Shown in pieces: positions 3,916-35,200 of a stretch of DNA of 64,000 bases; positions within the stretch are counted from its first letter, which is position 1; every line of letters begins with the position of its first letter. This DNA comes from an uncultured Nitrospiraceae bacterium (lineage in GTDB: Bacteria; Nitrospirota; Thermodesulfovibrionia; Thermodesulfovibrionales; UBA9159): the NCBI GenBank assembly GCA_964475485.1, contig CAYYWY010000002.1:18903-82902 (forward strand), given 5' to 3'. The notes below the pieces were generated by a model. It did not search any database and was not told the DNA's origin. It saw only the letters and a list, made by a program, of their open reading frames with translations. Made by a program: the position numbers and the translations under genes.

Positions 3916-6900
3916 CTAACAGCTTCTTGAGCGGCTATGTTCCATAGCCTGGTTCATGAACGCCTCGAGCTGTATCTCCGTAGTCGGCGACTCGGTTCCG
4001 TCGTACGACACGCTTATGCAGGGTACCCCGTAATCCCTGCTCAGTCCGTGCATAAGGGACGTCACTATCGTTCCGGGCATGCACCCGAAGGGCATCGCGT
4101 TGATAATGCCCGACGCGCCCTTCTCTATAAGGTCGATGCTTTTCCCTATGCTCAGGATCGCCTCCCCCTCGAAGGAATCGTGCAGGTACGGGGAAGCCTT
4201 CCTCAGTATCTCTCTTGTATCCGGCTCCTCCAGGGTCCTGAGGAACCCCCTGAAATGCCTTCCGAGACGGTGTTCCGTCTTCTTCTGAAAAAACTTCTTC
4301 AGGAGAATTTGAATGATAACAGACCTGTCTTTTTTAATCAAGGCCTTTCTCAGGGCCATCAGGTTCACGTAGTATATCCATTCCTCCATCGGCGCGAGCC
4401 AGACCTGCCCTCCAAGGGCCTCCACTTTTCTTACTAGGTCCTCATTTGAGAACTTGTGGCTCCTGACAAATATCTCTCCCACAATGCCGATGAGCGGTCT
4501 GTCTTCCTTATGTCTCGGTAGATCCTCGAAGTCCCTGCGCATTTTTCCGAGGAGAACATCGAGACTGCCGTCCGCGCCCCTGAGCGACGCATACATCTTC
4601 TCCCGGTAGTCCCTGTAAAGGGCATCTGTCGAACCTTTCTCTTTCTCGTATGGTCTTGTTTCGTGGAGACATTTGGTGAGGAGTTCGTAGGCAACGATTC
4701 CTTCCCATGCGAAGGAGGAGAAGTCTTTTCCCACGATACCCAGTTCCCGGTAGAAGTTGGAATCCTGGTTGGGCGAGAATATCGGGACATTCCGAAGGCC
4801 GAGTCCTTCAAGGATCATCCTGTGAAAGACGTTGTATTGACCGAACCTGCAGGGCCCCGATCCTGAAGGCATGAAGAACGCGGATTCATCCGGCCTGAAA
4901 TCGGGAGAAAGCACCTTCTTCAGCATATCCCCTGTCGTGACGGTGCAGGGGAAGCATTCTTTCCCCGAGACATAGCGCCTCCCTATGTCAACGGCCTCCT
5001 TATCCGATTCCGGCAACACCTCCGAAGGAATGCCGCATCTCTCGAACGCGGCGGCAAGGGCAAAGGCAGAGTCTGTCATACGGGGGATGAAGACGGTACG
5101 TTCTGAATGGCGAGCGGATATTAAGGAATGCGGGGAGAATCTCTTTTCAGCCGTAACACGTAACGCGTCTTCCCGTCCATGCCTGTCCGGCAGGCAGGCG
5201 GTAGGCAGGTAACGAGTTATGGTATTTTCGATGCTGTCGAGGAATGCCTCGCAACGCGTGATCGCCCCAGCGTCGGCGCTGTGTTCGTCTATCTCGATCT
5301 GCAGGTAGGGCTTTTCTTCCATCTCTTCCCTCAGGAACTTGAGGATGAATGAGTCAGGACCGCAGGAGAAATTGCTGATATACAAGGCATACAGGTTAGG
5401 GTTTTCCCTTATGAAACGCGCTGCCTTCAGTATCCTCTGGCCGGACCTCCAGTACATATTGGGCCATCTGTCTTTTATCTTCATAGCCGTCAAGGGGATA
5501 AAGTCCATAGGTATTGCAGGCACGCCAAGGTCGGAGAGCTTCCCGGGGATATTGAGATTCATGCCGCTGTCAAAGGCATTATACGGCCTTCCAATAATAA
5601 TGACGGTCCTCTCCTTCAGGGAGGAGAGGACCTCGGCCCCCTTCGACTTTATGGCGGCGGAGAACTCCTCCTGGGCCTTGCCGGCCTTCTTTAAGGCCTT
5701 TAATACGTCCCTCTTCTTCACCCCCAAAGGCTTGAGAGACCGCGCTATCTCGGCGATAAGGACATCGTCCCCGCTCCTGAGGTTCACCACAGGCGCAAGG
5801 ATCCTTGCTTCCGGATGGGCTACTTTCGCTGCATAGGGTATTGTCTGCGTGAGCGGACACGCAAATCCTTTTTCGAACTCATCATCGAGGGTGTTCATAT
5901 TGATGAAGCTCGGAATAAGAAGGGTCTTAACCCCTTTATTAACGAGGTGCTTTATGTGACCGTGAGCCACCTTGACAGGGAAGCAGGTATCGGCAAGAAC
6001 GCTTTCTGAACCGATGTTGACGATTTCCTTGTTGGTCTTCGGGGAAACCTCCACGGCGAAACCCAGCTCCCAGAGAAGAGTAGTCCAGAAGGGAAGATAG
6101 TCATGAAGAAAGAAGATGTACGGGATGCCGATCTTGAGCGGCGAGTGACGGGTGGCGAGCGACGAGGCCCTGTTTCTATGCTTTGAATCGTCATTTGTTA
6201 CTTGCAACCTGTTGCTGTATTCGTTGTGCGCCTTCCAGAGCATCTCCTCTCTGAAGGCGAAGAGGTCCGGAACGGACGAAGGCCCTTTCTTCTTCACGTC
6301 ATACTTCTCGCACCTGCCCCCGTAAAAGAGGTATCCTTCCTCGCCCTCTATCTTCACCCTGTTTATTTCGCAGACATTGGGGCATCCCCTGCATTCGAAG
6401 GACGAGACTTCGTAACGCCTCTCCGACAGTTCAAATCCCTTGAATTTGGTCGTTAGTCGATAGTGGGCAGCCGTCAGCGGAGCATCAGTCGCACACCTGC
6501 CTTCTATTTGACTATCGATTATTGGCTGTTGACTGTCGACCGACGACCGGTTTCTCATATACCTCATCGCTATCAGAGCCATCCCTATCGCTCCCGTCAC
6601 GTCATGGTGCGGAGGCACCGTTATTGTTCTGTTAAGGTACTTCTCGAAGGCGGCAACGACGGACTTATTAAAGGCTACCCCTCCCTGGAAGAAGATGTTT
6701 TCACCTATCGGCTTTCCAGCCACCACCTTGTTGATGTAGTTCTGGACAATGGAGTATGCCAGGCCGGCAAGGAGGTCGTCCCTGCCGGCTCCTTTCTGGA
6801 GGTTTGCCATGAGTGAATTCTCCATAAAGACCGTGCAACGCTCCCCAAGCCTGCAGGGGTTTTCAGAGGAAAAGGCGCAGGACGCAAACTCGTTTTTTAC

Positions 6901-8376
6901 CGAGATGCTGAGTTTCTCCGCCTGCTCTTCGAGAAAGCTTCCTGTGCCTGCAGCGCAGGCCTTGTTCATCTCGAAATCCACGACTACGCCGTCCCTTAAG
7001 GAAATATACTTAGAGTCCTGCCCCCCGATCTCGAAAATCGTATCGACGTTTCTGTCGATGAATGCGGCGGCAGTCGCCTGGGCTGTAATCTCGTTCTTTA
7101 CGATGTCTGCACCCACGTAGTCGGCGATCATGTAACGGCCTGATCCTGTCGTTCCCACGCCCATTATCTTTACCGTGTCTCCAAGCTCGGTCCCTATCTC
7201 CCTGAGTCCCTGGTTCACTGCCTCGATCGGCCTCCCCGCAGTCATCAGGTACCTCTTCGCGAGGAGACGGCCATCTTCGTCGATCACAGCAAGGTTTGTG
7301 CTTATGGACCCGATATCGATGCCCAGAAAAGCCTTAGTTTTGAGTTCTGAGTTTTGAGTCCTGAGTTCTTCATCTTCCAGCTTTGAACTTTGAACCTTAA
7401 ACCTTGAACTGTCTTCAAGGTGCCGCTCAAAGAAGTCATCGCCTTTTGAGACTAGGGGTTTATGACCATAGTCCGAGTACTGCATAGAATCGATAAGGGC
7501 ACTGAGTCTTTCGAGATCGAACCTCTGTATAAGGCCCTCGTCCATGCCTTTCATTGCAGCCCCCAACGCTCCCATGAGGGCGAAATCGCCGGGAACAAAG
7601 AGCTGCCCGAAGCCGAAGACTTCTCTGAACGCCCTCACCATCCCCTTGTTGGCGGCAACGCCGCCGTGGAAGGAGACCGGCTCCTCGATGACCCTCCCTC
7701 TCACGATAGAGCCCTTGAAGTTCCGGGCCACGGCAAAACATAGCCCCGCAACGATATCTTCCACAGGGGTCGCAATCTGTTGAAGGTGTATCATGTCGGA
7801 TTTTGCAAAGACGCTGCATCTGCCGGCGATCCGCGAAGGTTTGGATTTCAACGCAAGGTCGCTGAACTCTTCTATTGAAAGCCTGAGCCTTTCAGCCTGC
7901 TGGTCAAGAAACGATCCGGTACCTGCCGCGCATACGGAGTTCATCGAAAAGTCCCTGATACCGTTTCTGCCGAGGACGATGAGTTTCGAATCCTCGCCTC
8001 CCAGCTCAATGATCGTCTTTATGTGGGGGAAGAGCTTTCTCGTGGCATATGTCTGCGCAACCAGTTCATTCACGAACCCTATGCCGAGGGAAGCCGCGAT
8101 CAGCCTTCCGGAGGAACCTGTGACGGAGAGGGAGTGATCCTCGTTCAGTGAAGGGTGATGAGCGACGAGTGACGAGTTCCGGTCGGTCGGCCTGTCTCCA
8201 AGCTCATCATTTGTTACTTGTAACTTGTTACTCGTTACTGCCTCAAGGAGTTCAAGGGCCACCCTTAAGGGATGTCCCTTGTGACGCCTGTAATAGCCCT
8301 CGAGCTTGCGGCCGGCTTCGTCGAGGACGACAACCTTTACACTCACAGATCCTGCGTCAAGGCCGATGAATCTCAT
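3916..8376 (-). CDS. acyl-CoA dehydratase activase-related fusion protein: two BcrAD/BadFG-type ATPase domains plus activase-associated and 2-hydroxyacyl-CoA dehydratase D-component-like domains
   Basis: 1486 aa. Two copies of the GIDxGS...GGxDSK...CAAGTGSFL acetate/sugar-kinase-type ATPase motif set (res 1-320 and 350-620). The C-terminal half is typical of CoA-substrate-specific enzyme activase fusions. Confidence 0.8.
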   Translation of the reverse strand: MRFIGLDAGSVSVKVVVLDEAGRKLEGYYRRHKGHPLRVALELLEAVTSNKLQVTNDELGDRPTDRNSSLVAHHPSLNEDHSLSVTGSSGRLIAASLGIGFVNELVAQTYATRKLFPHIKTIIELGGEDSKLIVLGRNGIRDFSMNSVCAAGTGSFLDQQAERLRLSIEEFSDLALKSKPSRIAGRCSVFAKSDMIHLQQIATPVEDIVAGLCFAVARNFKGSIVRGRVIEEPVSFHGGVAANKGMVRAFREVFGFGQLFVPGDFALMGALGAAMKGMDEGLIQRFDLERLSALIDSMQYSDYGHKPLVSKGDDFFERHLEDSSRFKVQSSKLEDEELRTQNSELKTKAFLGIDIGSISTNLAVIDEDGRLLAKRYLMTAGRPIEAVNQGLREIGTELGDTVKIMGVGTTGSGRYMIADYVGADIVKNEITAQATAAAFIDRNVDTIFEIGGQDSKYISLRDGVVVDFEMNKACAAGTGSFLEEQAEKLSISVKNEFASCAFSSENPCRLGERCTVFMENSLMANLQKGAGRDDLLAGLAYSIVQNYINKVVAGKPIGENIFFQGGVAFNKSVVAAFEKYLNRTITVPPHHDVTGAIGMALIAMRYMRNRSSVDSQQPIIDSQIEGRCATDAPLTAAHYRLTTKFKGFELSERRYEVSSFECRGCPNVCEINRVKIEGEEGYLFYGGRCEKYDVKKKGPSSVPDLFAFREEMLWKAHNEYSNRLQVTNDDSKHRNRASSLATRHSPLKIGIPYIFFLHDYLPFWTTLLWELGFAVEVSPKTNKEIVNIGSESVLADTCFPVKVAHGHIKHLVNKGVKTLLIPSFINMNTLDDEFEKGFACPLTQTIPYAAKVAHPEARILAPVVNLRSGDDVLIAEIARSLKPLGVKKRDVLKALKKAGKAQEEFSAAIKSKGAEVLSSLKERTVIIIGRPYNAFDSGMNLNIPGKLSDLGVPAIPMDFIPLTAMKIKDRWPNMYWRSGQRILKAARFIRENPNLYALYISNFSCGPDSFILKFLREEMEEKPYLQIEIDEHSADAGAITRCEAFLDSIENTITRYLPTACLPDRHGREDALRVTAEKRFSPHSLISARHSERTVFIPRMTDSAFALAAAFERCGIPSEVLPESDKEAVDIGRRYVSGKECFPCTVTTGDMLKKVLSPDFRPDESAFFMPSGSGPCRFGQYNVFHRMILEGLGLRNVPIFSPNQDSNFYRELGIVGKDFSSFAWEGIVAYELLTKCLHETRPYEKEKGSTDALYRDYREKMYASLRGADGSLDVLLGKMRRDFEDLPRHKEDRPLIGIVGEIFVRSHKFSNEDLVRKVEALGGQVWLAPMEEWIYYVNLMALRKALIKKDRSVIIQILLKKFFQKKTEHRLGRHFRGFLRTLEEPDTREILRKASPYLHDSFEGEAILSIGKSIDLIEKGASGIINAMPFGCMPGTIVTSLMHGLSRDYGVPCISVSYDGTESPTTEIQLEAFMNQAMEHSRSRSC
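6136..6215. repeat. dispersed repeat family A, copy 2 (in-frame inside the activase gene)
   Basis: gcgagtgacggg...gcgagcgacgagg plus atttgttacttgc (6193-6205). Encodes NRLQVTNDDSKHRNRASSLATRHSPLK. Confidence 0.65.
7338..7410. repeat. microsatellite-like 7-8-mer tracts inside the inter-domain linker of the activase gene
   Basis: tgagttc/tgagttt/tgagtcc/tgagttc (7338-7368) and ttgaact/ttgaacc/ttaaacc/ttgaact (7381-7410). Encodes SRFKVQSSKLEDEELRTQNSELKTK. Confidence 0.65.
8157..8240. repeat. dispersed repeat family A, copy 1 (in-frame inside the activase gene)
   Basis: Cores gtgacgagttc (8169-8179) and atttgttacttgt (8209-8221). Translated on the minus strand as AVTSNKLQVTNDELGDRPTDRNSSLVAHH. 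Confidence 0.7.
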
Positions 8377-18394: not shown

Positions 18395-19696
18395 TCATCG
18401 TGTGATGCGTACGTCAAGGAGATGTGTGGAACACGAGATGCATGGGTCGTAGGCCCTTATGGCCCGTTCGATGCCCTTTTTGAGGGACGCCGTGTCGAGG
18501 TGAGTATTGAGCTGCACATAATGCCTGAGTTCTGCTTCCATCATGGAAAGGTTTTGAGAAGTGGGAGGGATAAGTCCGCAGTGGAGCACCTTGCCCTCGT
18601 TGTTCAGTTCGTATCTGTGGATAAGGATGCCTCTCGGGGCCTCGGTTATCCATACCGCCTCGCCGGCCCTGGGCTCGAAGGCAACGGAGGGTCTATCCGG
18701 TTTCTCATAATCTTTGATGATCCGCAGCGCCTCGTGAAACGCGTACGCCATCTCTACCGATCTTGCGACAATGCTCATCTGCGTGTTCGTAATGGGGAGC
18801 GTCACCGGGGATCCTTCGATCCTCTCTCTGATTTCTGAAGGTAATCTCTCGTAGTTAAGGTTGAGCCGTGCTATCGGGCCGACGAGGTACGGGCTCAGGG
18901 AGGAGTTCCTCTTGATCCCGGAGTATAGGGCCGTGGAGTCCCCCACCTGGTATTCCTGCAGAATTTTCATAAAGCCGTCCATCGACTCATCAAGTCCCCT
19001 GTTCGAGATGACACGACCTTCGTTCATGGGATATTCCCCGGCATGACTCAGCGAAACATACTCCACGTCGCGGACGTTGTCATTAAAGGGCAAACGCGAC
19101 GCCCATTCTATCTCCGTGAGAGACTCCTCGTATGCGCGTTGAAGTTCGCCGCGAATGGAGGCGAGCTCCCTTTTCTCCGGGACTCTGTAAAATCCTCCGA
19201 TCCTGACCGACACAGGATGTACCGACCTTCCGCCGAGGATGGACAGTATCCTGTTGCCGAGTCGCTTAAAGCCCAGACCCCTTCTTGCAACGGGAATATA
19301 CTCTCTGTCGGACCAGGCGCTTTCAATCCCGTAAAAGTCGGGTCCGTGAAGGAGATAGACGTGCAATGCATGGCTCTCTATCCACTCCCCTGCGTACAGG
19401 AGTCTCCTCAGGTCCCTTACCGGCTTTTCTATCTCGATTCCGAAAATCTTTTCCATGGCATGGACGGAACTCATCTGGTAAGCTACCGGGCATATACCGC
19501 AGATTCGTGCCGTGAAGTCAATCACATCCGAGCACGGCCTTCCTCTGACGAGGGATTCGAAAAATCTCGGCGCCTCGAAGATCCTCATACGGAGTCCCGT
19601 CAGCTTGCCATCCGCGATTTCTACGGAAACCCCTCCTTCTCCCTCGACCCTCGCTAAGTAGTCGATCTTGATGACCTTATTCACCTTGTCCGTCAC
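18395..19696 (-). CDS. cytoplasmic group-3b NiFe hydrogenase large (alpha) subunit
   Basis: RICGICPVAY N-terminal motif and DPCISCSTH C-terminal motif, 433 aa. Operon order beta-gamma-delta-alpha as in sulfhydrogenases. Confidence 0.85.
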   Translation of the reverse strand: MTDKVNKVIKIDYLARVEGEGGVSVEIADGKLTGLRMRIFEAPRFFESLVRGRPCSDVIDFTARICGICPVAYQMSSVHAMEKIFGIEIEKPVRDLRRLLYAGEWIESHALHVYLLHGPDFYGIESAWSDREYIPVARRGLGFKRLGNRILSILGGRSVHPVSVRIGGFYRVPEKRELASIRGELQRAYEESLTEIEWASRLPFNDNVRDVEYVSLSHAGEYPMNEGRVISNRGLDESMDGFMKILQEYQVGDSTALYSGIKRNSSLSPYLVGPIARLNLNYERLPSEIRERIEGSPVTLPITNTQMSIVARSVEMAYAFHEALRIIKDYEKPDRPSVAFEPRAGEAVWITEAPRGILIHRYELNNEGKVLHCGLIPPTSQNLSMMEAELRHYVQLNTHLDTASLKKGIERAIRAYDPCISCSTHLLDVRITR

Positions 19697-19698
19697 GA

Positions 19699-20463
19699 TT
19701 ACGATGTGTTCTCTATCTTAGCCTTCCTGTACGCATATGTGTTCATCTTGTCAAGCAAAAGCGTGCACTCATTTTGGGTGAATCCCCTTTTCTGGAAGAC
19801 GGCAAGAAGGGATTGGATATTTGAATTCTCCTTCGGTCCGAAACATCCGTAGCAAGGTCTCTCGAAAGATGGGCATAGGACCCCGCATCCGGTCCGCGTG
19901 ACCGGACCCAGACAGGGCTCTCCCTTCGAGACGAGGAGGCAGGGTATCCCCCGGTCCTTACATTCCATGCAAAGGCTGTATCTCGGCATCCCGGGTTTCT
20001 TGCCGATAAGAGAAGATACGAGCGTTTCGGAGACGGCAGTCTTATCGACGGGACATCCCCATAATTCGTAGTCGACGTATACGTGATCCGATACCGGTGT
20101 TGAGGTTGGAAGGGCTGAGATACTTTTGGGAGAGGGATATACATATTTCTTGTATGCGGAAAGATTCGCCCAGTTTCTCAATGCCTGCAGTCCTCCGGAG
20201 GTGGCGCACGCCCCTATGGTTATGAGATGCCTCGACCTCTCTCTGATATTCACTATCTCTTCCTTTTGGCGGTCCGTCGATACGGAGCCCTCGACGATGC
20301 CGATCTCGAACTGACCTCTGAGAGGCCTGTCCGTGGCCTCCCGGAAATAAGAGATGTCGTACAGCTCAATAAGATCCAGAAGCGTGTCTTCCAGGTTCAG
20401 GATGGCGAGCTGACAGCCGTCGCATGAGGTAAGTTTGAATACACCGATCTTCGGCTTCTTCAT
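19699..20463 (-). CDS. group-3b NiFe hydrogenase small (delta) subunit
   Basis: Nuo 20-kDa-like fold: LTSCDGCQ, GACATSGG, plus a Cys-rich C-terminal FeS region. Confidence 0.85.
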   Translation of the reverse strand: MKKPKIGVFKLTSCDGCQLAILNLEDTLLDLIELYDISYFREATDRPLRGQFEIGIVEGSVSTDRQKEEIVNIRERSRHLITIGACATSGGLQALRNWANLSAYKKYVYPSPKSISALPTSTPVSDHVYVDYELWGCPVDKTAVSETLVSSLIGKKPGMPRYSLCMECKDRGIPCLLVSKGEPCLGPVTRTGCGVLCPSFERPCYGCFGPKENSNIQSLLAVFQKRGFTQNECTLLLDKMNTYAYRKAKIENTS

Positions 20464-20464
20464 T

Positions 20465-21313
20465 TCAGATCTCCTTTATCCCGAAAAATTCCTCGATTTC
20501 TGAAAACCTGAAAACAGGGCCGTCCTTGCACACGAATTTTGGACCGAAAAAACAATGCCCGCATATTCCCATGCCGCAATTCATATTCCGTTCCATGGAT
20601 AAAAAGATCTTCTCTCCTGCCACGCCTTTCAGGATCAACTCCTTTACCACCGTCTGCATCATTATCTCCGGCCCGCATATGAACACCAAGACATTAAGTG
20701 GATCGAACGGAGCTTTGCCCAGAAGCCGTGTTATGAGACCCACATCTCCGTGCCAGTATTCTTCGGGGTCGGCCTTGTCGACCGTAAGAAAAACTTCGAA
20801 AATATCTCTGTACCTTGGAAACTCGTCCCTGAAAATTATATCTTTCGGCGCCTTTGTTCCATAGAGTATCATATGTCTTGAGGCTCCGGTAGAATGTCTG
20901 TATTTTCCAGAAAGCTTCATTACATGCCTGATTGCGGACCGCAAAGGAGCAATGCCCAACCCCCCTGCAATGATCATCACATCCCTCCCTTCCATCTCTT
21001 CCAAAGGCCATCCGTTGCCGAAGGGGCCTCTCATCCCCAGTACATTCCCGGCGCTCAGCCTCGATATGGCAGTTGTAACGTCACCTGCGACCCTGATGGT
21101 GTGCATGAGGTCATGGTCTGACGGAGCAGAGCTTATGGATATCGCTGCCTCGCCGACACCAGGGACGGACAGCATGTTGAACTGCCCCGGGATGAAAGAG
21201 TACGCCTTTTCGATATCCCTGTTTACAATCTTCAGGGCATATGTGGCGGTATCCCTTGTTTCCTTCTTTATCCACTTTATTCTTGCCTCAAAGGGTATGG
21301 ACTTGTCGTACAT
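20465..21313 (-). CDS. group-3b hydrogenase gamma subunit (FAD/NAD(P)-binding oxidoreductase with 2Fe-2S)
   Basis: Ferredoxin-NADP reductase-like fold (GGLGIAPL) and C-terminal CGMGICGHCF cluster motif. Confidence 0.8.
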   Translation of the reverse strand: MYDKSIPFEARIKWIKKETRDTATYALKIVNRDIEKAYSFIPGQFNMLSVPGVGEAAISISSAPSDHDLMHTIRVAGDVTTAISRLSAGNVLGMRGPFGNGWPLEEMEGRDVMIIAGGLGIAPLRSAIRHVMKLSGKYRHSTGASRHMILYGTKAPKDIIFRDEFPRYRDIFEVFLTVDKADPEEYWHGDVGLITRLLGKAPFDPLNVLVFICGPEIMMQTVVKELILKGVAGEKIFLSMERNMNCGMGICGHCFFGPKFVCKDGPVFRFSEIEEFFGIKEI

Positions 21314-21339
21314 TGTTCAGTTTCCTTCTTATGCAGAGG

Positions 21340-22467
21340 TTATTGCCTAATCGCCTCAAGCTCTTCGGTAATATCGATTCCGGCAGGGCACCATGTGATG
21401 CACCTGCCGCAACCCACACAGTCAGGCGAACCGTGCTGTTCTATACTGTAAGCAAGTTTGTGGGTCATCCAGTGCCTGTACCGTGCGCTCCGGGATGGTC
21501 TGAAGTTGCCGCCATGGACTCTCGCAAAATTTACGGAAAAACATGAGTCCCACGTTCTCACCCTTGTCCCGGAGATCTCCGCTTTTTTCGAAATACCGGG
21601 CAACAAAAGGTAATCATAGCTTGAATTGCAGAAGCACGTGGGACAAACCTGGGTGCAATTGCCGCATTCAAGGTCCAGTTTTGCGACCTCTGCCCACCGG
21701 GGATGCTCAAGATTCCTATAGATTAACGCCGGCAGTTCATGTGTACCGACTGATTTCCTAATCAACCGTATGCAACTCTCGATCGCGGAGGTCTTCTTGT
21801 CCCTGTCGCTGTTATCGATTTCCTCTGACGGCAAAGCATCCATTATCTCCTTTCCTCTTGCTGTTCCAGCTTCAAGGAGGAAATACTCATCGATTTCCGA
21901 GAGCGCCACATCAAATGCATCCCGGATCTCAGGACCGGTTCCCATGGAATGGCAGAAGCAATTCCCGCCGGGATACACGCAATTGACGCCGATTACCAGT
22001 AAATCCTTTCTCAAAGAACTGTAAGTGGAATCCCTGACCGCTCCTCCGAGGAATACCTTATCGAGTTTCTTGAGGGCTGCGATATCGCATGCCCTCACAC
22101 CGATGAAGGCGAGGGGCTTATCTTCCTTGACGACGGGCTTTACATAAAGGCCCTTTTTCGATTTCCTGAACGTGAATAGTTCTTCCATGAAAGGAGGGTG
22201 CAGAAACCGTTTAAATGAATCAGGCCCCACAGAGAATGAAAACATAGTTTTCGCAGGTCCTGCAGTCGGCTGGGATGATTGAGGGCTGCTGAGCTTGTAT
22301 ATGCCTTTGCCCTGGCGGTCTCTATAGCCCGCAGGTATGTCGTCAAAATCGATGTCTTTGAGGACTATGACATCATTTTCGATCTTAGGGCCGATTATCC
22401 TGTGAGAACCCTTGACCTTCTCAAAGACAAGCCTCAAAACGTCTTTCCTTATCTTAATTTCTTTCAT
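21340..22467 (-). CDS. group-3b hydrogenase beta subunit (4Fe-4S dicluster protein)
   Basis: CGNCTQVCPTC and CVGCGRCITWCP ferredoxin motifs, 375 aa. First gene of the four-gene operon. Confidence 0.8.
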   Translation of the reverse strand: MKEIKIRKDVLRLVFEKVKGSHRIIGPKIENDVIVLKDIDFDDIPAGYRDRQGKGIYKLSSPQSSQPTAGPAKTMFSFSVGPDSFKRFLHPPFMEELFTFRKSKKGLYVKPVVKEDKPLAFIGVRACDIAALKKLDKVFLGGAVRDSTYSSLRKDLLVIGVNCVYPGGNCFCHSMGTGPEIRDAFDVALSEIDEYFLLEAGTARGKEIMDALPSEEIDNSDRDKKTSAIESCIRLIRKSVGTHELPALIYRNLEHPRWAEVAKLDLECGNCTQVCPTCFCNSSYDYLLLPGISKKAEISGTRVRTWDSCFSVNFARVHGGNFRPSRSARYRHWMTHKLAYSIEQHGSPDCVGCGRCITWCPAGIDITEELEAIRQ

Positions 22468-27603: not shown

Positions 27604-27728
27604 TTGGCACATGGGAGAAGGAGAGGAGATATTCCTACGCACACACACCGCACGGGAGCCCGAGCATCGCATGCCTGCCTCTCTGAGCGCATATCACGTC
27701 TTAATATTTATACGGAGGTGAATCATCT

Positions 27729-28814
27729 ATGAGTAAGATGAAGGATGACCAAAGTATCTGGATGAGCCTCGCAAAGCAAGGTGTATCGAGGAGGGACTTT
27801 GTAAAGTTCTGCACCGCCATGGCGGCAACGCTTGCACTCCCCTCCGGCTTTGTCCCGCATATCGTTGATGCCCTCGAAAAGAAGCAGAAGCCTTATGCCG
27901 TTTGGCTTGAATTCCAGGACTGCGCAGGGGACTCCGAATCCATGCTCAGGGCGTCCAAGCCCACCATCGCGGAGATAGTTCTGGATGTCATCTCCCTCGA
28001 ATACCACGAGACCATCATGTCGGGTGCAGGCAAGAGCGCCGAAAAGGCCCTGCAGGATGTGGTGAAGAACCAGAAGGGCAAGTACATCGCCATCGTCGAA
28101 GGCGCCATCCCGATGAAGGACGGAGGGGTGTACTGCACCATAGCAGGGAGAACAGCCATCGAGATCGCAAAAGAGGTTTGCGGAAATGCCGCCCTCACCC
28201 TCAACGTCGGCTCATGCTCCAGTTGGGGAGGAATCGCCAGCGCTTCACCCAATCCGACGGGCGCTGTAGGGGTGGGAAAGGCCGTGCCGGGCATTACTTA
28301 TGTCAACCTGCCGGGCTGTCCGATGAACGTCGAAAACGTAACCGCCGTCATAGTCCATTACCTCACCTTTGGGGCATTGCCTGCACTTGACCGTGAACAT
28401 CGTCCTCTCTTCGCCCACGGCAAGAGGATACACGACAACTGCGAAAGACGCGCGCACTTTGACGCAGGGCAGTTCGTAAGGAAATGGGGCGACGAGGGAC
28501 ACAGGCTCGGCTGGTGTCTCTACGAGATGGGATGCAAAGGACCCGAGGCATACTTCAATTGTCCGTCCATCCGCTGGAACGCCGGGACGAGCTGGCCGAT
28601 ACAGTCAGGGCATCCATGCTTTGCCTGCGCAAGCACCGATAACTGGGACAAGTTCGGCCCTATCTATACTAGGCTTCAGAACGTTCCTGGAGCGGGCTAC
28701 CAAAGCAGCGCCGACAAGATCGGTCTTGGGGTCGCAGCGGTTGCAGCGGCAGGCGTGGCAGCCCACGCAATCGTAAGGGCTGCAAAAGGAAGGCCAAGAG
28801 AAGAAAAAGAATGA
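27729..28814 (+). CDS. group-1 NiFe hydrogenase small subunit, Tat-exported, C-terminal membrane anchor
   Basis: Twin-arginine signal SRRDFVKF. FeS ligands GSCSSWGG, PGCPMN, HDNCERRAHFD, GWCLYEMGCKGP, NCP, GHPCFAC. C-terminal TM IGLGVAAVAAAGVAAHAIV. Confidence 0.9.
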   Translation: MSKMKDDQSIWMSLAKQGVSRRDFVKFCTAMAATLALPSGFVPHIVDALEKKQKPYAVWLEFQDCAGDSESMLRASKPTIAEIVLDVISLEYHETIMSGAGKSAEKALQDVVKNQKGKYIAIVEGAIPMKDGGVYCTIAGRTAIEIAKEVCGNAALTLNVGSCSSWGGIASASPNPTGAVGVGKAVPGITYVNLPGCPMNVENVTAVIVHYLTFGALPALDREHRPLFAHGKRIHDNCERRAHFDAGQFVRKWGDEGHRLGWCLYEMGCKGPEAYFNCPSIRWNAGTSWPIQSGHPCFACASTDNWDKFGPIYTRLQNVPGAGYQSSADKIGLGVAAVAAAGVAAHAIVRAAKGRPREEKE

Positions 28815-28839
28815 TAAAAAGGTAGAAGGAGGTTAGAGC

Positions 28840-30549
28840 ATGGCAAAGATTGCGATTGACCCCATCACGAGGATTGAAGGGCACCTGAGGATCGAGGCGC
28901 AGGTGGATGGAGGCAAGGTCACCGATGCCTGGTCATCCGGCACGATGTGGAGAGGGATAGAGATAATCGTTAAAGGGAGGGATCCGAGGGAGTGCTGGGC
29001 ACTCACCTCCCGAATATGAGGGGTTTGAACAACGGTCCACGCACAGTGCTCCGTGAGAGCCGTGGAAAACGCAGTAGGCGCAGTGATCCCCGACAATGCA
29101 AGGATCATAAGGAACCTTATTAACGGTATTCAGTATGTTCAGGATCACGTGATACATTTCTACCACCTTCATGCCCTGGACTGGGTGGACGTGGTGAGCG
29201 CCCTTAAGGCAGATCCAGCAAAAACAGCCTCCCTTGCCCAGTCGATATCCGACTGGCCGAACTCCTCGCCCACGCATTTCAAGGCGGTTCAGGGCAAGGT
29301 GAAGGCCCTTGTGGAGAGCGGCCAGCTCGGCCTCTTTGCCAGCGGCTATTGGGGCCATCCCGAATACAAGCTTCCCCCGGAGGCAAACCTCATGGCAGTA
29401 GCCCATTACCTCGAAGCCCTGGACTTTCAGAGGGATGTCATAAGGATGCAGGCACTCCTTGGCGCAAAGAACCCTCACCCGCAGACCTGGCTTGTGGGGG
29501 GTATGGCGATACCGGTGGACGCTAACAGTCAGAACGCCCTGAACGCAGGCAGTATCGCATTCATGAAGGAGATAGCACAGAAGTCCCTTGCCTTCGTCCA
29601 GAAGGTGTACATACCGGACCTCCTCGCAGTAGCATCCTTCTATAAGGAGTGGGCGGGCATAGGCGCCGGGGTGGGCAATTACCTTTCATACGGCGAGTTC
29701 CAGAACGACAACGTCAGCAATACGACGAACTGCTGGCTCCCTGCCGGTTTCATAAGGAACAAGAACCTCGGCAAGGTTGAGCCGGTTGACCACAAGAAGG
29801 TGACCGAGGACGTCGCCCATGCCTGGTACAAGTACAGCGACGGAGACGACAAGGCAAAGCACCCATGGGACGGGGAGACGACTCCCAATTATACAGGCCC
29901 CAAACCGCCTTATGAATTCCTTGACACGAACAAGAAGTACAGCTGGGTCAAGGGAATCCGTTATGACGGGCTTTCGACCGAGGTGGGCCCCCTTTCGAGA
30001 ATGCTCGTTGCATATGCGTCGGGGCACAAGAGAATCAAGGAAGTAGTCGACATGGTGTTAGGCAAGCTGGGGGTGGGCCCGGCAGCGCTGTTCTCCACGC
30101 TCGGCCGCACTGCCGCAAGGGGAATAGAGACGCTCGTTACGGCGGAGATGCTCTCTGTCTGGATCGATGACCTTGCCGCAAAGATAAAGGGCGGCGACAT
30201 CCGCATCCACAACAGTGAAAAGTGGGACCCTGCGTCCTGGCCCAAGGAGGCGAAGGGATTCGGCTTCCACGAGGCGCCCAGGGGTTCGCTCGGTCACTGG
30301 GTTGTGATCAGGGATGGAAAGGTTGCCAATTATCAGTGCGTTGTGCCGGGCGGATGGAATTCCTCTCCGAGAGACGCGAAAGGGCAGAGGGGACCATACG
30401 AGTCGGCTCTGGTGGGCACTCCCGTAAAGGACCCCAATAAGCCGCTCGAGATCCTGAGGACCATCCATTCCTTTGACCCGTGCATGGCATGCGCCATTCA
30501 CGTTGTCGATTCCAATCATGACGAGATACTCAAAGTCAGGGTGGTATAG
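28840..30549 (+). CDS. group-1 NiFe hydrogenase large subunit with two in-frame TGA codons (29017-29019, 29026-29028) at the N-terminal Ni-ligand positions; putative double-selenocysteine protein, or a disrupted gene
   Basis: SD GGAGG then ATG 28840. A single frame reads [15 protein letters not shown]...[36 protein letters not shown] and joins ORF 29053..30549, which ends DPCMACAIH plus a 15-aa cleavable tail. Confidence 0.8.
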
Positions 30550-30557
30550 GAGGGGTT

Positions 30558-31202
30558 ATGGTAAAGAGAGTTTATGTTTGGGAGTTTCCTGTAAGGCTCA
30601 CCCATTGGCTGAATGTCCTGAGCATACTGACACTCTCGTTCACCGGTTTTTACATCGGCGCGCCGTTCATCCATGCCGTGAGTGAAGACCAGTTCATAAT
30701 GGCCCAGATGCGCTACATTCACTTCATCGCAGGCTATGTCTTTGCGGTGAGCATGGCGGTACGTATATACTGGTCATTTGTCGGCAACAAGTACTCCCGC
30801 TGGACGGACTTTGTCCCTTTGACCTCCCAGCAGTGGAAGAACATCGTGGACACCGCAAAGTTCTATGCCTTCCTGAAAAAGGAACCCGTCCGCTACGCAG
30901 GGCATACAGGCCTTGCCGCCCTCACGTACTCAATCCTGTTCATTCTGCCGGTGGTCGCCATCTTTACCGGATTTGCGCTCTATTCCGAAAGCCATCCCCC
31001 CGGAATACTCTGGACCATCATGGGCGGATGGCTCTTTTCGATCATGAGCACCGGCACCGTGCGACTCCTCCACCACAGCGCCATGTGGCTCCTCCTGATT
31101 TTCGCATTCATTCACATATACATGTCCTGGTTCAACGACCTGGCTGAGAGAAACGGCCTCATTAGCTCAATCTTCAGCGGCTACAAATCCATGGAGGAAT
31201 AG
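30558..31202 (+). CDS. Ni/Fe-hydrogenase b-type cytochrome subunit
   Basis: VYVWEFPVRLTHWLN start, four TM helices with conserved His residues, 214 aa. Confidence 0.85.
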   Translation: MVKRVYVWEFPVRLTHWLNVLSILTLSFTGFYIGAPFIHAVSEDQFIMAQMRYIHFIAGYVFAVSMAVRIYWSFVGNKYSRWTDFVPLTSQQWKNIVDTAKFYAFLKKEPVRYAGHTGLAALTYSILFILPVVAIFTGFALYSESHPPGILWTIMGGWLFSIMSTGTVRLLHHSAMWLLLIFAFIHIYMSWFNDLAERNGLISSIFSGYKSMEE

Positions 31203-31208
31203 GAGACG

Positions 31209-31706
31209 TTGATTACAGCGGTAATAGGTCTCGGCAATATACTTTTGAAGGACGAAGGGGTCGGTGTCCATGCAGTCAACGCCCTAAAGGAAAGCTGTTC
31301 CTTTTCTCCCGAAGTGGAGATCATCGATGGCGGCACCTTGGGCCTCGACCTCCTTCCTCTTATCGAAGGCAAAGACAGGCTTATACTGATAGACGCCGTT
31401 GACTTCAAGAAAGAACCCGGGTTCATCGGGGTTTTAGAGGACGAGGAGATACCCTCCGCCCTCTTTGCGAAGCTCTCCGTGCACCACATCGGTCTCTCTG
31501 ACGTCCTGTATGCCTCAAAACTGATGGGCATAACCCCGGCGAAGATACGGCTCATAGGCATCCAGCCCGGGTCCATGGATGTGGGCCTTGATCTGACGCC
31601 CTGCGTCAGCGACAGGATTAAAGACGTCGTCGAAATGACGGTCAAAACGCTGAAGGAGTGGAATGTAGAATGTGCCTTGCCGTCCCCTCAGAAATCGTCC
31701 GCATAA
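31209..31706 (+). CDS. hydrogenase maturation endopeptidase (HyaD/HybD/HupD family)
   Basis: TTG start. AVIGLGNILLKDEGVGVHAV, IDAV, and a conserved H near the C-terminus. Confidence 0.85.
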   Translation: MITAVIGLGNILLKDEGVGVHAVNALKESCSFSPEVEIIDGGTLGLDLLPLIEGKDRLILIDAVDFKKEPGFIGVLEDEEIPSALFAKLSVHHIGLSDVLYASKLMGITPAKIRLIGIQPGSMDVGLDLTPCVSDRIKDVVEMTVKTLKEWNVECALPSPQKSSA

Positions 31707-31915
31707 ATGATCTGACCGCGACAATCGATGTCGGAGGCGCAAGAAGGGAGGTAAGCCTCATGCTCCTCCCCGATGAACCGAGGGTCGGGGACTTCGTGAT
31801 CGTCCATGCCGGTTTTGCCATCCAGAAGATAGAGAGGGAGGCAGGGCTTGAAGCGCACCGCCTCCTGAAAGAGCTCTCCGAGAATGAGGAGTTCAAGGCT
31901 TTGTTCGGAGCGTGA
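31670..31915 (+). CDS. hypC: hydrogenase assembly chaperone HypC/HupF family
   Basis: Start chosen so that the protein begins MCLAVP (essential Cys2). VGDFVIVHAGFAI. Confidence 0.85.
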   Translation: MCLAVPSEIVRINDLTATIDVGGARREVSLMLLPDEPRVGDFVIVHAGFAIQKIEREAGLEAHRLLKELSENEEFKALFGA

Positions 31916-32505
31916 AGCGATATATCCTTGCGATAACAGGCGCCAGCGGCTCCATCTTCGGTGTCAGACTTCTTGAGCATCTGAGCAAATCCGCGGAAGT
32001 CCACCTCATTATTTCCTCGCAGTCCTTCCCGATCATAAGGCACGAGACAGGCATTGACTGGTCCGGGAAGTCCGAAAAAGAAGTCGAGGCAAAGGTCCGG
32101 TCCTATGCCGGCGCGAAGAAGATCCGCTGCTACGACGAGCTAGACCTTGCCGCTCCCCTTTCGAGCGGATCCTTCGTGACAGACGGAATGCTCGTGGTCC
32201 CCTGTTCCATGAAGTCCCTTTCCGGGATCGCCAACGGTTATGCGAACAACCTCACGGAGCGTGCTGCAGACGTCACGATAAAGGAAGGAAGGCCCCTTCT
32301 CGTCTCCCCTAGGGAAACGCCCTTCAGCGCGATACACCTCGAAAACATGCTGAAACTTGCGAGACTGGGAGTAAGGATCGTGCCTCCGGTGCCGGCCTTT
32401 TATCAGAAGCCGGAGAAGCTGAGTGACATTGTCGATTTCGTGGCGGGAAAGATCCTTGACTCCTTCGGCATCCCCCATAACCTCTTCAGGAGATGGAAAG
32501 GTTAA
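31912..32505 (+). CDS. ubiX: UbiX-family flavin prenyltransferase
   Basis: ILAITGASGSIFGVRLLE, VVPCSMKSLSGIANGYANNL, RPLLVSPRETP. Confidence 0.88.
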   Translation: MKRYILAITGASGSIFGVRLLEHLSKSAEVHLIISSQSFPIIRHETGIDWSGKSEKEVEAKVRSYAGAKKIRCYDELDLAAPLSSGSFVTDGMLVVPCSMKSLSGIANGYANNLTERAADVTIKEGRPLLVSPRETPFSAIHLENMLKLARLGVRIVPPVPAFYQKPEKLSDIVDFVAGKILDSFGIPHNLFRRWKG

Positions 32506-33895: not shown

Positions 33896-34699
33896 GTGAG
33901 GAGAAAGGCGGCAGTTGCCGGGCAGTTCTACCATGCTGCATCCGCAAAATTGGACCATCAGGTACGGCAGTATGTGAGTCGCAACCTGCCGAAGGAGCGC
34001 GCAATAGCAATCCTTTCTCCCCACGCAGGACTTATTTACTCCGGCGCCGTTGCAGGAGAAGTTTACTCCAGTATCGCCATCCCCGATACATTTGTTCTAA
34101 TCGGCCCCAACCATACCGGCCTCGGCGCAAAGATCTCCCTTATGTCAGAAGGTGAATGGGAGATACCTACAGGGGTTTTCCTCATCGACGAAAGGCTCTC
34201 TCAGAGGATACTTGCCTGCACCCCCCTGGTCTCTCAGGATGTCCAGGCTCACATCTTCGAGCACTCCCTTGAGGTACAGCTCCCTTTCATCGCACATTTT
34301 TCGAAAAACGCGAAGATCGTCCCGCTAACCATCATGTCTGCGACACTGGACGAATGCAGGTTGCTCGGTGAGGGTGTCGCAAAAGCGGTAAGCAGCTCGG
34401 ACTATCCTGTTGTTATTGCGGCAAGCTCCGATATGTGCCATTACGTATCTGATACCGAATGCCGCAGAAAGGACAGAATGGCCATTGACAGGATACTCGC
34501 CCTGGACCCTGAGGGGCTTTTCGAAACTGTACGGAGCGAGCATATCTCGATGTGCGGATATCTGCCTGCCACGGTCATGCTCTTCGCTGCAAAATTTCTC
34601 GGCGCAAGAACCTCAAGACTCGTAAAATACGCCACCTCCGGAGAGGTGAGCGGGGACTACGAAAACGTCGTTGGATACGCTGGGATCGTCGTTTCCTGA
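33896..34699 (+). CDS. AmmeMemoRadiSam system protein B (Memo-like)
   Basis: GTG start. AAVAGQFY, ILSPHAGLIYSG, GPNHTG, HSLEVQLPF, SSDMCHY. Confidence 0.85.
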   Translation: MRRKAAVAGQFYHAASAKLDHQVRQYVSRNLPKERAIAILSPHAGLIYSGAVAGEVYSSIAIPDTFVLIGPNHTGLGAKISLMSEGEWEIPTGVFLIDERLSQRILACTPLVSQDVQAHIFEHSLEVQLPFIAHFSKNAKIVPLTIMSATLDECRLLGEGVAKAVSSSDYPVVIAASSDMCHYVSDTECRRKDRMAIDRILALDPEGLFETVRSEHISMCGYLPATVMLFAAKFLGARTSRLVKYATSGEVSGDYENVVGYAGIVVS

Positions 34700-34762: not shown

Positions 34763-34786
34763 GGGCAGTTGCCTGCCCTGTTTGTG
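34763..34786 (+). terminator. rho-independent terminator candidate
   Basis: gggcag-ttgc-ctgccc hairpin followed by tgtttgtg. Confidence 0.5.
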
Positions 34787-35200
34787 ATGGGTGAAAAAAG
34801 TTGATCCGGCAAATTAGATCTTTTGGGAGTCAGAGTAAGGGGTACGGTGTGCATGCCAGGCGTACAGCCAGGAAGCCTGAAGTCCCCTTCAAGACACCCA
34901 CCTATAATATGGGCGGATCTAATTATTCACTTACACGGCAGGGCGGGTTTATTTTGCGGGTTTTCATGATCGCTTTGCTTTTTGTGAGGGATTTAAATAA
35001 AAAAACAGAGGAGTCCGGTAAAACACTCACATTCGTGAAGGCTGAGGCCGCTTCAGGCAGCCCAAACCGACCCGTTCCGCGAGATTCCTTTATTTTCAGT
35101 ATCTCTCTATCCTTTTTTACCATCCCCGCAATAGCGTAAGAGTCGCATCAGGCCCGCACTACCCTCAGGAGAAATCCGTTACGAAAGGGGGAGACGTGCG

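Follow-up and report, generated by a model that had tools for sequence, protein, structure and literature searches.

The stretch analysed here, 64,000 nucleotides of contig CAYYWY010000002.1 from an uncultured Nitrospiraceae bacterium (hereafter the window), carries the gene for a [NiFe] hydrogenase large subunit (28840..30549, plus strand) that is interrupted by two in-frame UGA codons. The gene was assigned by frame reading, Pfam and alignment to structures in the PDB. It comprises 569 codons, including the two UGAs, in a single frame that runs from ATG 28840, preceded by the strong ribosome-binding site GAAGGAGG, to TAG 30547-30549, and its sole internal stops are TGA 29017-29019 (UGA1) and TGA 29026-29028 (UGA2), both on the plus strand. 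The portion following the UGAs matches the large-subunit family PF00374 with an E value of 1.4e-210. Alignment with solved structures places protein positions 60 and 63 on the two cysteines of rACGVCtyvh in Desulfovibrio gigas, residues 65 and 68, that is, on the first and the second Cys of the RxCGxCxxxH motif. We take these residues, after Volbeda 1995, to be the terminal Ni ligand (Cys65) and the Ni-Fe bridge (Cys68). At the other end of the protein, the C-terminal Ni-binding motif DPCMACAIH (30475..30501, plus strand) has Cys at both ligand positions and is followed in translation by a 15-residue extension (30502..30546, plus strand). From what is generally known of [NiFe] maturation, this extension is of the type that would be cut off by a maturation endopeptidase. 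An initial annotation of this DNA had described one 569-codon frame with only two TGAs inside it, ending in DPCMACAIH and a 15-residue tail, and had matched the TGAs to the terminal and bridging cysteines of RxCGxCxxxH; rereading the frame directly and aligning it with D. gigas bore out both statements. With UGA at both of its Cys positions, the N-terminal motif can supply its share of the four Cys ligands only if the codons are recoded to selenocysteine (Sec) or Cys. The C-terminal DPUxxC that typifies canonical [NiFeSe] hydrogenases is absent, and the combination of UGA at both N-terminal CXXC cysteines with an all-Cys C-terminal motif is that of a UXXU-type enzyme.

The genes around the large subunit form an intact operon, as the initial annotation had it. 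Upstream lies the small subunit (27729..28814, plus strand; PF01058 and PF14720), with the twin-arginine translocation (Tat) signal SRRDFVKF and a C-terminal membrane anchor. Downstream, on the same strand, follow a membrane cytochrome b subunit (30558..31202; PF01292), a HycI/HyaD-type maturation endopeptidase (31209..31706; PF01750) and a HypC/HupF-type chaperone (31670..31915), the last recognized by eye from its N-terminal signature MCLAVPSEIV with no profile search. Since four genes are supported by Pfam and both the Tat signal and HypC are present, the operon appears to encode a complete periplasmic, membrane-anchored uptake hydrogenase.

To place the two UGAs in context, we read the corresponding codons in 80 species-representative genomes and 80 metagenome contigs (160 loci) together with the window, which yielded 158 motif sites. 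TGA/TGA (UxxU) was present at 38 sites, TGY/TGA (CxxU) at 15 and TGY/TGY (CxxC) at 105, while TGA/TGY (UxxC) was found at none; the UGA1 position was TGA at 38 of the 158 sites and the UGA2 position at 53. Below, genes with TGA are referred to as Sec-type and those with TGY at both codons as Cys-type. The UxxU genes came from metagenome-assembled genomes (MAGs) labelled Nitrospirota, Thermodesulfovibrio, Thermodesulfobacteriota, Anaerolineae/Thermoflexus (Chloroflexota) and Methylomirabilia. Twenty-seven Sec-type genes (the window and 26 genome loci) were read over their full length. These were intact at about 569 codons, save for one gene with an assembly gap inside it and a few whose start codon is uncertain; their N-terminus was conserved and their C-terminal DPCMAC was all-Cys, as it was in all Sec-type loci read to their 3' end. 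Apart from that assembly gap, a check for the extra frameshifts and stops that would indicate decay gave none in the full-length Sec-type genes. In 52 Sec-type sequences, the 57 codons 5' of UGA1 contained no stop at all, and compared with the window they showed 1187 synonymous and 721 nonsynonymous codon differences. Because stops are missing and synonymous differences outnumber nonsynonymous ones, we conclude that the part 5' of the UGAs is translated and under purifying selection. The initial annotation had argued that two TGAs at just these codons were improbable by chance; what demonstrates this is the occurrence of the same TGA pair in 37 other loci (and of TGY/TGA in 15), not a statistic drawn from the window. 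By these comparisons, the two-UGA arrangement is real and occurs in dozens of species from several phyla.

The same arrangement accounts for how the family looks in public databases. Among the 120 best protein-database homologues, 71 were gene calls of 490-499 amino acids, and these were the closest relatives (79-92% identity), full-length Cys-type proteins occurring only at 77% identity or below. All six short gene calls whose N-terminus was read start just past UGA2. Public gene calls cut the large subunits of the clade to 495, 498 or 504 residues, with a GTG or ATG start placed just past the second UGA; such start calls explain why the N-terminal motif was missing from 73 of the top 120 hits. 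At the C-terminal end, the UxxU large subunits of Anaerolineae/Thermoflexus (loci L014, L015, L017-L019 and L021) have a longer tail, ...RI[RLH]LNDWTCP, with an extra Cys, compared with the ...RIRVV type of the other clades.

Just past UGA2 lies a hairpin that resembles a selenocysteine insertion sequence (SECIS; 29036..29066, plus strand), defined by comparative alignment and by its minimum free energy (MFE) fold. Its lower stem pairs UCCACG 29036-41 with CGUGGA 29061-66 and is separated by a 6-nt asymmetric internal loop from an apical stem-loop, conserved across the clade, in which GCUC 29048-51 pairs with GAGC 29057-60 around the loop CGUGA 29052-56. The loop starts 32 nt past UGA1 and 23 nt past UGA2. 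Both distances fall inside the 16-37 nt from UGA to loop that Zhang and Gladyshev reportedly gave in 2005 for the bacterial SECIS consensus. The hairpin drawn there (ccacg/cgtgg, gctc/gagc, loop cgtga) is, with one extra U-A pair, the MFE fold of 29029-29072, and it contains the conserved apical stem-loop. In the window and its nearest three relatives (L023, L081 and L082), Gln-Cys/Gln-Ser codons cut the apical stem to 4 bp and the lower stem is added, a configuration particular to the window's own lineage. Like bacterial SECIS elements of the Escherichia coli fdhF type and of the bSECISearch consensus, this is a coding-region hairpin just past a UGA, with a short apical stem and a G(U) in the loop; it differs from them in that it would serve two UGAs 9 nt apart and in being very small (4-6 bp with a 5-nt loop). 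Rfam returned no SECIS family at the gathering threshold over the window, and only chance hits at E values up to 10 over 28950-29150.

Comparison among relatives provided evidence that this structure is maintained as RNA. An ungapped alignment of the 72 nt from UGA1 in the 27 full-length Sec-type genes was folded by RNAalifold into a single hairpin (columns 30-35 paired with 41-46, 5-nt loop), with a bulged-C register in five of the sequences. Three of the six pairs covary (AU 7/GC 7/UA 6; GC 15/CG 7; CG 22/UA 4), a score reached by none of 500 shuffles, and pairing collapses when the 3' arm is slid by 1-3 columns. The 6-bp stem with a GUG loop was present in 45 of the 53 UGA-type genes vs 3 of the 105 Cys-type genes (Fisher p 1.8e-27, uncorrected for phylogeny). 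All 53 Sec-type genes have G at loop position 2, the loops being CGUGC, CGUGA, GGUGA and, in one case, GGUCC, and in 50 of them the Ser-Val-Arg codons read TC[C/G]-GTG-[C/A]GA, the Arg codon being mostly CGC or CGG in Cys-type genes. Cys-type orthologues from Nitrospirota encode the identical peptide (one version being STSSVRAVE) and have lost the hairpin by synonymous changes only (GTG to GTC or GTA, AGA to AGG, GCG to GCC). Because these same-peptide orthologues lost the hairpin synonymously, it appears to be kept as RNA only alongside the UGAs, which is the behaviour expected of a SECIS element. In many Sec-type genes (L001-L013, in the columns of window 29026-29039), UGA2 also lies within a second small hairpin, UGAAC-N4-GUUCA, and a Val codon of GTT, giving a pair with the A of UGA, is enriched in TGA types (33 of 53 vs 35 of 105 Cys types). 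This second hairpin was excluded from the model, as the window has GTC and hence a mismatch.

The nearest solved large subunits are all standard Group 1 enzymes: Allochromatium vinosum (3myr, 702 bits), Salmonella Hyd-5 (4c3o, 664 bits) and E. coli Hyd-1 (609 bits). The full-length match to the Ni-dependent hydrogenase family, the Tat-dependent small subunit and the cytochrome b partner are those of a Group 1 membrane-bound uptake hydrogenase, and the last two features together with the Group 1 neighbours in the PDB argue against membership of Group 4. The nearest Cys-type relatives, at 63-68% identity, belong to Geobacter, Geomonas, Desulfuromonadales, Deferribacter, Acidobacteriota and Roseiflexus. 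Enzymes of these taxa have been classed as Group 1f, a polyphyletic and poorly studied subgroup (PMC6896113; PMC5900883), and in Deferribacter the 1f genes comprise an identical set of three structural genes along with a protease (PMC6896113). The window operon shares with Group 1f enzymes (Geobacter sulfurreducens Hya, Deferribacter HyoSLE, Acidobacterium ailaaui and Roseiflexus) the order small subunit, large subunit, cytochrome b, protease, as well as the small-subunit CxG[D/N] motif; as described, however, those enzymes are all-Cys, whereas the window enzyme has two UGAs. The enzyme thus belongs to Group 1 and, judging from its relatives and gene order, probably to subgroup 1f. In the window, the proximal-cluster motif of the small subunit is DCAGDSES (WLEFQDCAGDSES), with Asp instead of the standard second Cys (C-x-G-C), and across the subfamily (L001-L080) this position is GD in 37 cases, GN in 28 and GC in 13. 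A link between the Asp and Sec use was considered and rejected: D, N or C occur in Sec-type and Cys-type operons alike, as a family trait.

The canonical Group 1a [NiFeSe] hydrogenases, represented by Desulfomicrobium baculatum and D. vulgaris Hildenborough (PDB 1cc1 and 2wpn), are likewise periplasmic Group 1 enzymes in which Se replaces S as a Ni ligand by means of a SECIS in the coding region. They carry, however, a single Sec in the C-terminal DPUxxC, at the position of the terminal ligand Cys530 of D. gigas, whereas the UGAs of the window lie at Cys65 and Cys68 and its C-terminal motif is DPCMAC. Nor are they closely related to the window enzyme, since they score 286-319 bits in partial alignments; the best of them reaches 319 bits against the window large subunit vs 702 bits for A. 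vinosum. In a 2026 review of prokaryotic selenoproteins, UxxC is the sole form in which hydrogenase Sec is listed. N-terminal UXXU, CXXU and UXXC motifs were reported in September 2026, in silico, for Group 4 [NiFe] hydrogenases (Takano et al., Front Microbiol, PMC13582414). In that work the Sec of Groups 1 and 3 is placed at the C-terminal motif, the exceptions being two Group 1 sequences and one Group 3 sequence with an N-terminal CXXU (from Baltazar 2011), UXXC and UXXU are described as earlier unrecognized, and it is proposed that one SECIS may serve both UGAs. The initial annotation had held the UxxU arrangement to be undescribed. For Group 4 this no longer stands, but for Group 1 it appears to, as we found no report of UXXU in the full-text literature searched. 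As far as sequence can tell, our finding extends the just-published Group 4 motif to Group 1 and is one of a motif widespread there.

The Group 4 UXXU genes likewise have a single SECIS-like hairpin past the second UGA. A G is conserved there at position 1 or 2 of the loop, and in one clade, as in the window, it opens a Val GUG codon; these genes too show a mosaic Sec/Cys distribution among uncultured anaerobes and are known from bioinformatic evidence only (PMC13582414). In contrast to the cytoplasmic-facing, complex-I-like, energy-converting Group 4 enzymes, the window encodes a Group 1 uptake enzyme that is exported by Tat and anchored through cytochrome b, and UXXC, which is reported in Group 4, was absent from all 158 sites of the Group 1 set. 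Sec has been placed at the same two ligand positions by engineering. The C76U and C79U variants of the Group 1 membrane-bound Hyd-1 of E. coli matured and were active at 3% and 13% of the native enzyme; their KM for H2 was lower, and they tolerated O2 less well (Evans et al., PNAS 2021, PMC8020662). Those were single changes, made by EF-Tu/UAG recoding in an O2-tolerant Group 1d enzyme, whereas the natural enzyme would have both together with a co-evolved protein.

A neighbour-joining tree built from 156 large subunits grouped the Sec types in one broad region with Cys types interspersed, and Fitch parsimony on this tree counted 8 Sec/Cys changes. Among Sec types, the position and core sequence of the hairpin are the same everywhere. 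A TGC/TGC orthologue, L143 (Ga0315296_10009777, at about position 2965), retains the complete 6-bp stem and CGUGC loop, which suggests a recent Sec-to-Cys reversion; L025 and L151 are similar cases. The constancy of the hairpin's position and core and its full retention in L143 make a single early gain followed by repeated reversion plausible, repeated gain being the alternative. Since UxxC was not found, CxxU is common (15 sites) and the spacing is better for UGA2, the distribution suggests that the bridging position acquired its UGA first and the terminal position second. The series CxxC, CxxU, UxxU without UxxC suggests an ordered route to Sec.

Taken as a whole, these observations are best explained by a large subunit that is functional and belongs to a periplasmic uptake [NiFe] hydrogenase anchored in the membrane of an uncultured Nitrospirota bacterium (Thermodesulfovibrionales-like); both UGAs of its gene would be read through by the SelB/SECIS pathway. 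The one small hairpin in the coding sequence would act twice in recruiting SelB and its charged tRNA, the ribosome advancing three codons in between. The likely product would have Sec at both positions of the N-terminal motif (RI-U-GV-U-TTVH), and the four ligands of Ni would be one terminal Se, one Se bridging Ni and Fe, and the two S of the C-terminal DPCxxC. To this reading, of a Group 1 large subunit with both UGAs recoded by SelB/SECIS and Sec most likely at both, we assign a probability of roughly 0.6. Its parts differ in strength. The comparative data leave very little doubt that this is a genuine, working gene in which a SECIS-type hairpin directs the recoding of both UGAs, and the initial annotation's argument for recoding is upheld by TGA/TGA pairs across phyla, intact frames, purifying selection, covariation and hairpin loss in Cys-type genes. 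Its preference for Sec over Cys is less secure, Sec at both positions being the reading that we favour as the likeliest. We infer from the sequences, and do not observe, the binding of the hairpin by SelB, the service of both codons by one hairpin, the insertion of Sec over Cys and any catalytic consequence.

Several points weigh against this reading. A Pfam search of about 50 window ORFs (open reading frames) gave no SelA, SelB or SelD in the 64 kb, and ARAGORN gave no tRNA, selC included, in the window or in the 52 Sec-type loci of a few kb each. With no sel gene or tRNA in the window, the organism's use of Sec is something we infer. A scan for in-frame TGAs gave only adjacent genes in the same frame, and thus no second selenoprotein candidate in the window. 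The hairpin of the window is thermodynamically unexceptional (z = -0.36 over 44 nt and +1.14 in a 91-nt context), its apical stem of only 4 bp departs from the 6-bp consensus of the clade, and its lower stem lacks support from covariation because only four near-identical sequences have it. We know of no experimental demonstration, in any bacterium, of two Sec insertions 9 nt apart from one SECIS. The engineered single variants of E. coli Hyd-1, C76U and C79U, kept only 3% and 13% of activity (PMC8020662), and the genomes of Group 4 UXXU enzymes are enriched for tRNA-ReC, a possible Cys inserter (PMC13582414).

The last point leads to the explanation that competes most seriously with Sec insertion, namely that the same SelB/SECIS recoding places Cys at one or both UGAs by means of a tRNA-Sec-like tRNA-Cys (selC*, tRNA-ReC), in which case the mature enzyme may be all-Cys, single-Se or a Sec/Cys mixture set by selenium supply. 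We regard this as the less probable outcome, though a tangible one. Lineages in which selC* has been reported (Thermodesulfovibrio, Nitrospirae, Thermodesulfobacteria and delta-proteobacteria; PMC5389517) carry these genes, and the window itself comes from a Nitrospirota/Thermodesulfovibrionales-like organism. In Group 4, a tRNA-ReC-like gene was found in about 56% of UXXU genomes vs about 2.3% of other Sec-type genomes, and according to the authors Cys may be inserted at one or both of the UGAs (PMC13582414). The frequent switching between Sec and Cys in our tree and the existence of close Cys-type orthologues also indicate that Cys is functionally acceptable at both sites. Insertion of Cys would, however, offer no obvious benefit for keeping two UGAs and a constrained hairpin in four phyla over long times if the product were the same as that of TGC, and both CxxU and UxxU persist as sizeable clades. 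Moreover, selC* was not seen in the window or in the 52 loci of a few kb each.

The remaining explanations are far less probable. A pseudogene, or TGAs that are sequencing or assembly errors, would fit the splitting of the gene by gene callers, the unexceptional local fold and a window without Sec machinery. We nevertheless consider this effectively refuted, as both TGAs recur in 37 independently assembled loci and the second alone in 15 more, further stops and frameshifts are missing, purifying selection acts on the 5' part, the hairpin covaries and has disappeared only from Cys-type genes, and the whole operon is intact; nothing suggests a TGC-to-TGA artefact shared by all assemblies. It is equally improbable that translation terminates at UGA1 and that a separate 498-residue protein starts at GTG 29053, giving a split or truncated large subunit. 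An open reading frame of that size is present and homologues are so annotated in databases, but two of the four Ni ligands would be missing from its product, as would the conserved N-terminal beta-strands. GTG 29053 is, besides, the codon for Val in the loop of the hairpin, and no ribosome-binding site precedes it, in contrast to the strong GAAGGAGG before ATG 28840; the 59 upstream codons are in frame and conserved in every Sec-type locus. Least credible of all, and refuted by the use of TGA as a stop, is a genome-wide reassignment of UGA to Trp or Gly (codes 4 and 25) or a general suppressor, for which we found no specific point: the UGAs align to invariant Cys ligands and not to Trp or Gly, and the genetic code is standard, with the two UGAs a local feature, because TGA ends 20 of the 47 ORFs in the window and a second hydrogenase encoded there has ordinary Cys.

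This second [NiFe] hydrogenase is encoded by an operon of four genes on the minus strand (window 18395-22467), comprising a Fer4_22 subunit (21340-22467), an NAD-binding/FeS subunit (20465-21313), a small subunit (19699-20463) and a large subunit of 433 amino acids (18395-19696). Its Ni-binding motifs, RICGIC and DPCISCSTH, have Cys throughout, and its layout resembles that of Group 3b (sulfhydrogenase-type) enzymes. Directly after hypC of the Group 1 operon lies a flavoprotein gene (31912-32505, plus strand; PF02441, UbiX/CoaC-like), which may be part of the operon because it falls inside the block 27712-32496 that blastn aligns between the window and L023, its closest genome relative. Further downstream, a full-length 6S RNA gene (SsrS; 34767-34953, plus strand; Rfam RF00013, 89.9 bits) is found just 3' of a Memo-like gene (33896-34699). 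On the minus strand, positions 3916-8376 encode a fusion protein of 1486 amino acids in which two BadF/BcrA/HgdC-type ATPase domains are joined to DUF2229 and a 2-hydroxyglutaryl-CoA dehydratase D-like region; a homologue with 71-73% nucleotide identity is located directly 5' of the UxxU hydrogenase operon in a Nitrospirota MAG (locus L004, 13-4154). The SecA protein encoded in the window is 88% identical to proteins from Nitrospirae and Thermodesulfovibrionales MAGs, which places the host among the uncultured Nitrospirota.

If Sec is indeed inserted at both codons, these genes would define a widespread, overlooked Group 1 (1f-like) clade with a natural [NiFeSe2] site, hosted by uncultured Nitrospirota, Thermodesulfobacteriota, Chloroflexota and Methylomirabilota, with Se at both N-terminal and S at both C-terminal ligands and with both Sec residues inserted through one minimal SECIS acting twice; we rate the chances of this whole picture as slightly better than even. 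In the accepted view, nature puts Se at one position of the [NiFe] site, that of the terminal C-terminal Cys. Within Group 1, the enzyme would then be the first case of a bridging Se as well as of two Se ligands, and a natural counterpart of the engineered Hyd-1 variants C76U and C79U; natural Se at the other terminal and the bridging position would show that both positions can be used productively. Such co-evolved proteins would lend themselves to electrochemistry and spectroscopy, for which close Cys-type orthologues would serve as ready controls, and Group 1 is experimentally far more tractable than Group 4. Two UGAs 9 nt apart with one hairpin would likewise provide a natural system in which to study the flexibility of UGA-SECIS spacing and the reloading of SelB within three codons. 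For the organisms themselves, public gene calls omit the first Ni-binding motif, and the large subunits therefore look N-terminally broken in surveys; as a result of these shifted starts, both the hydrogen-oxidizing capacity and the selenium use of these lineages may be under-reported.

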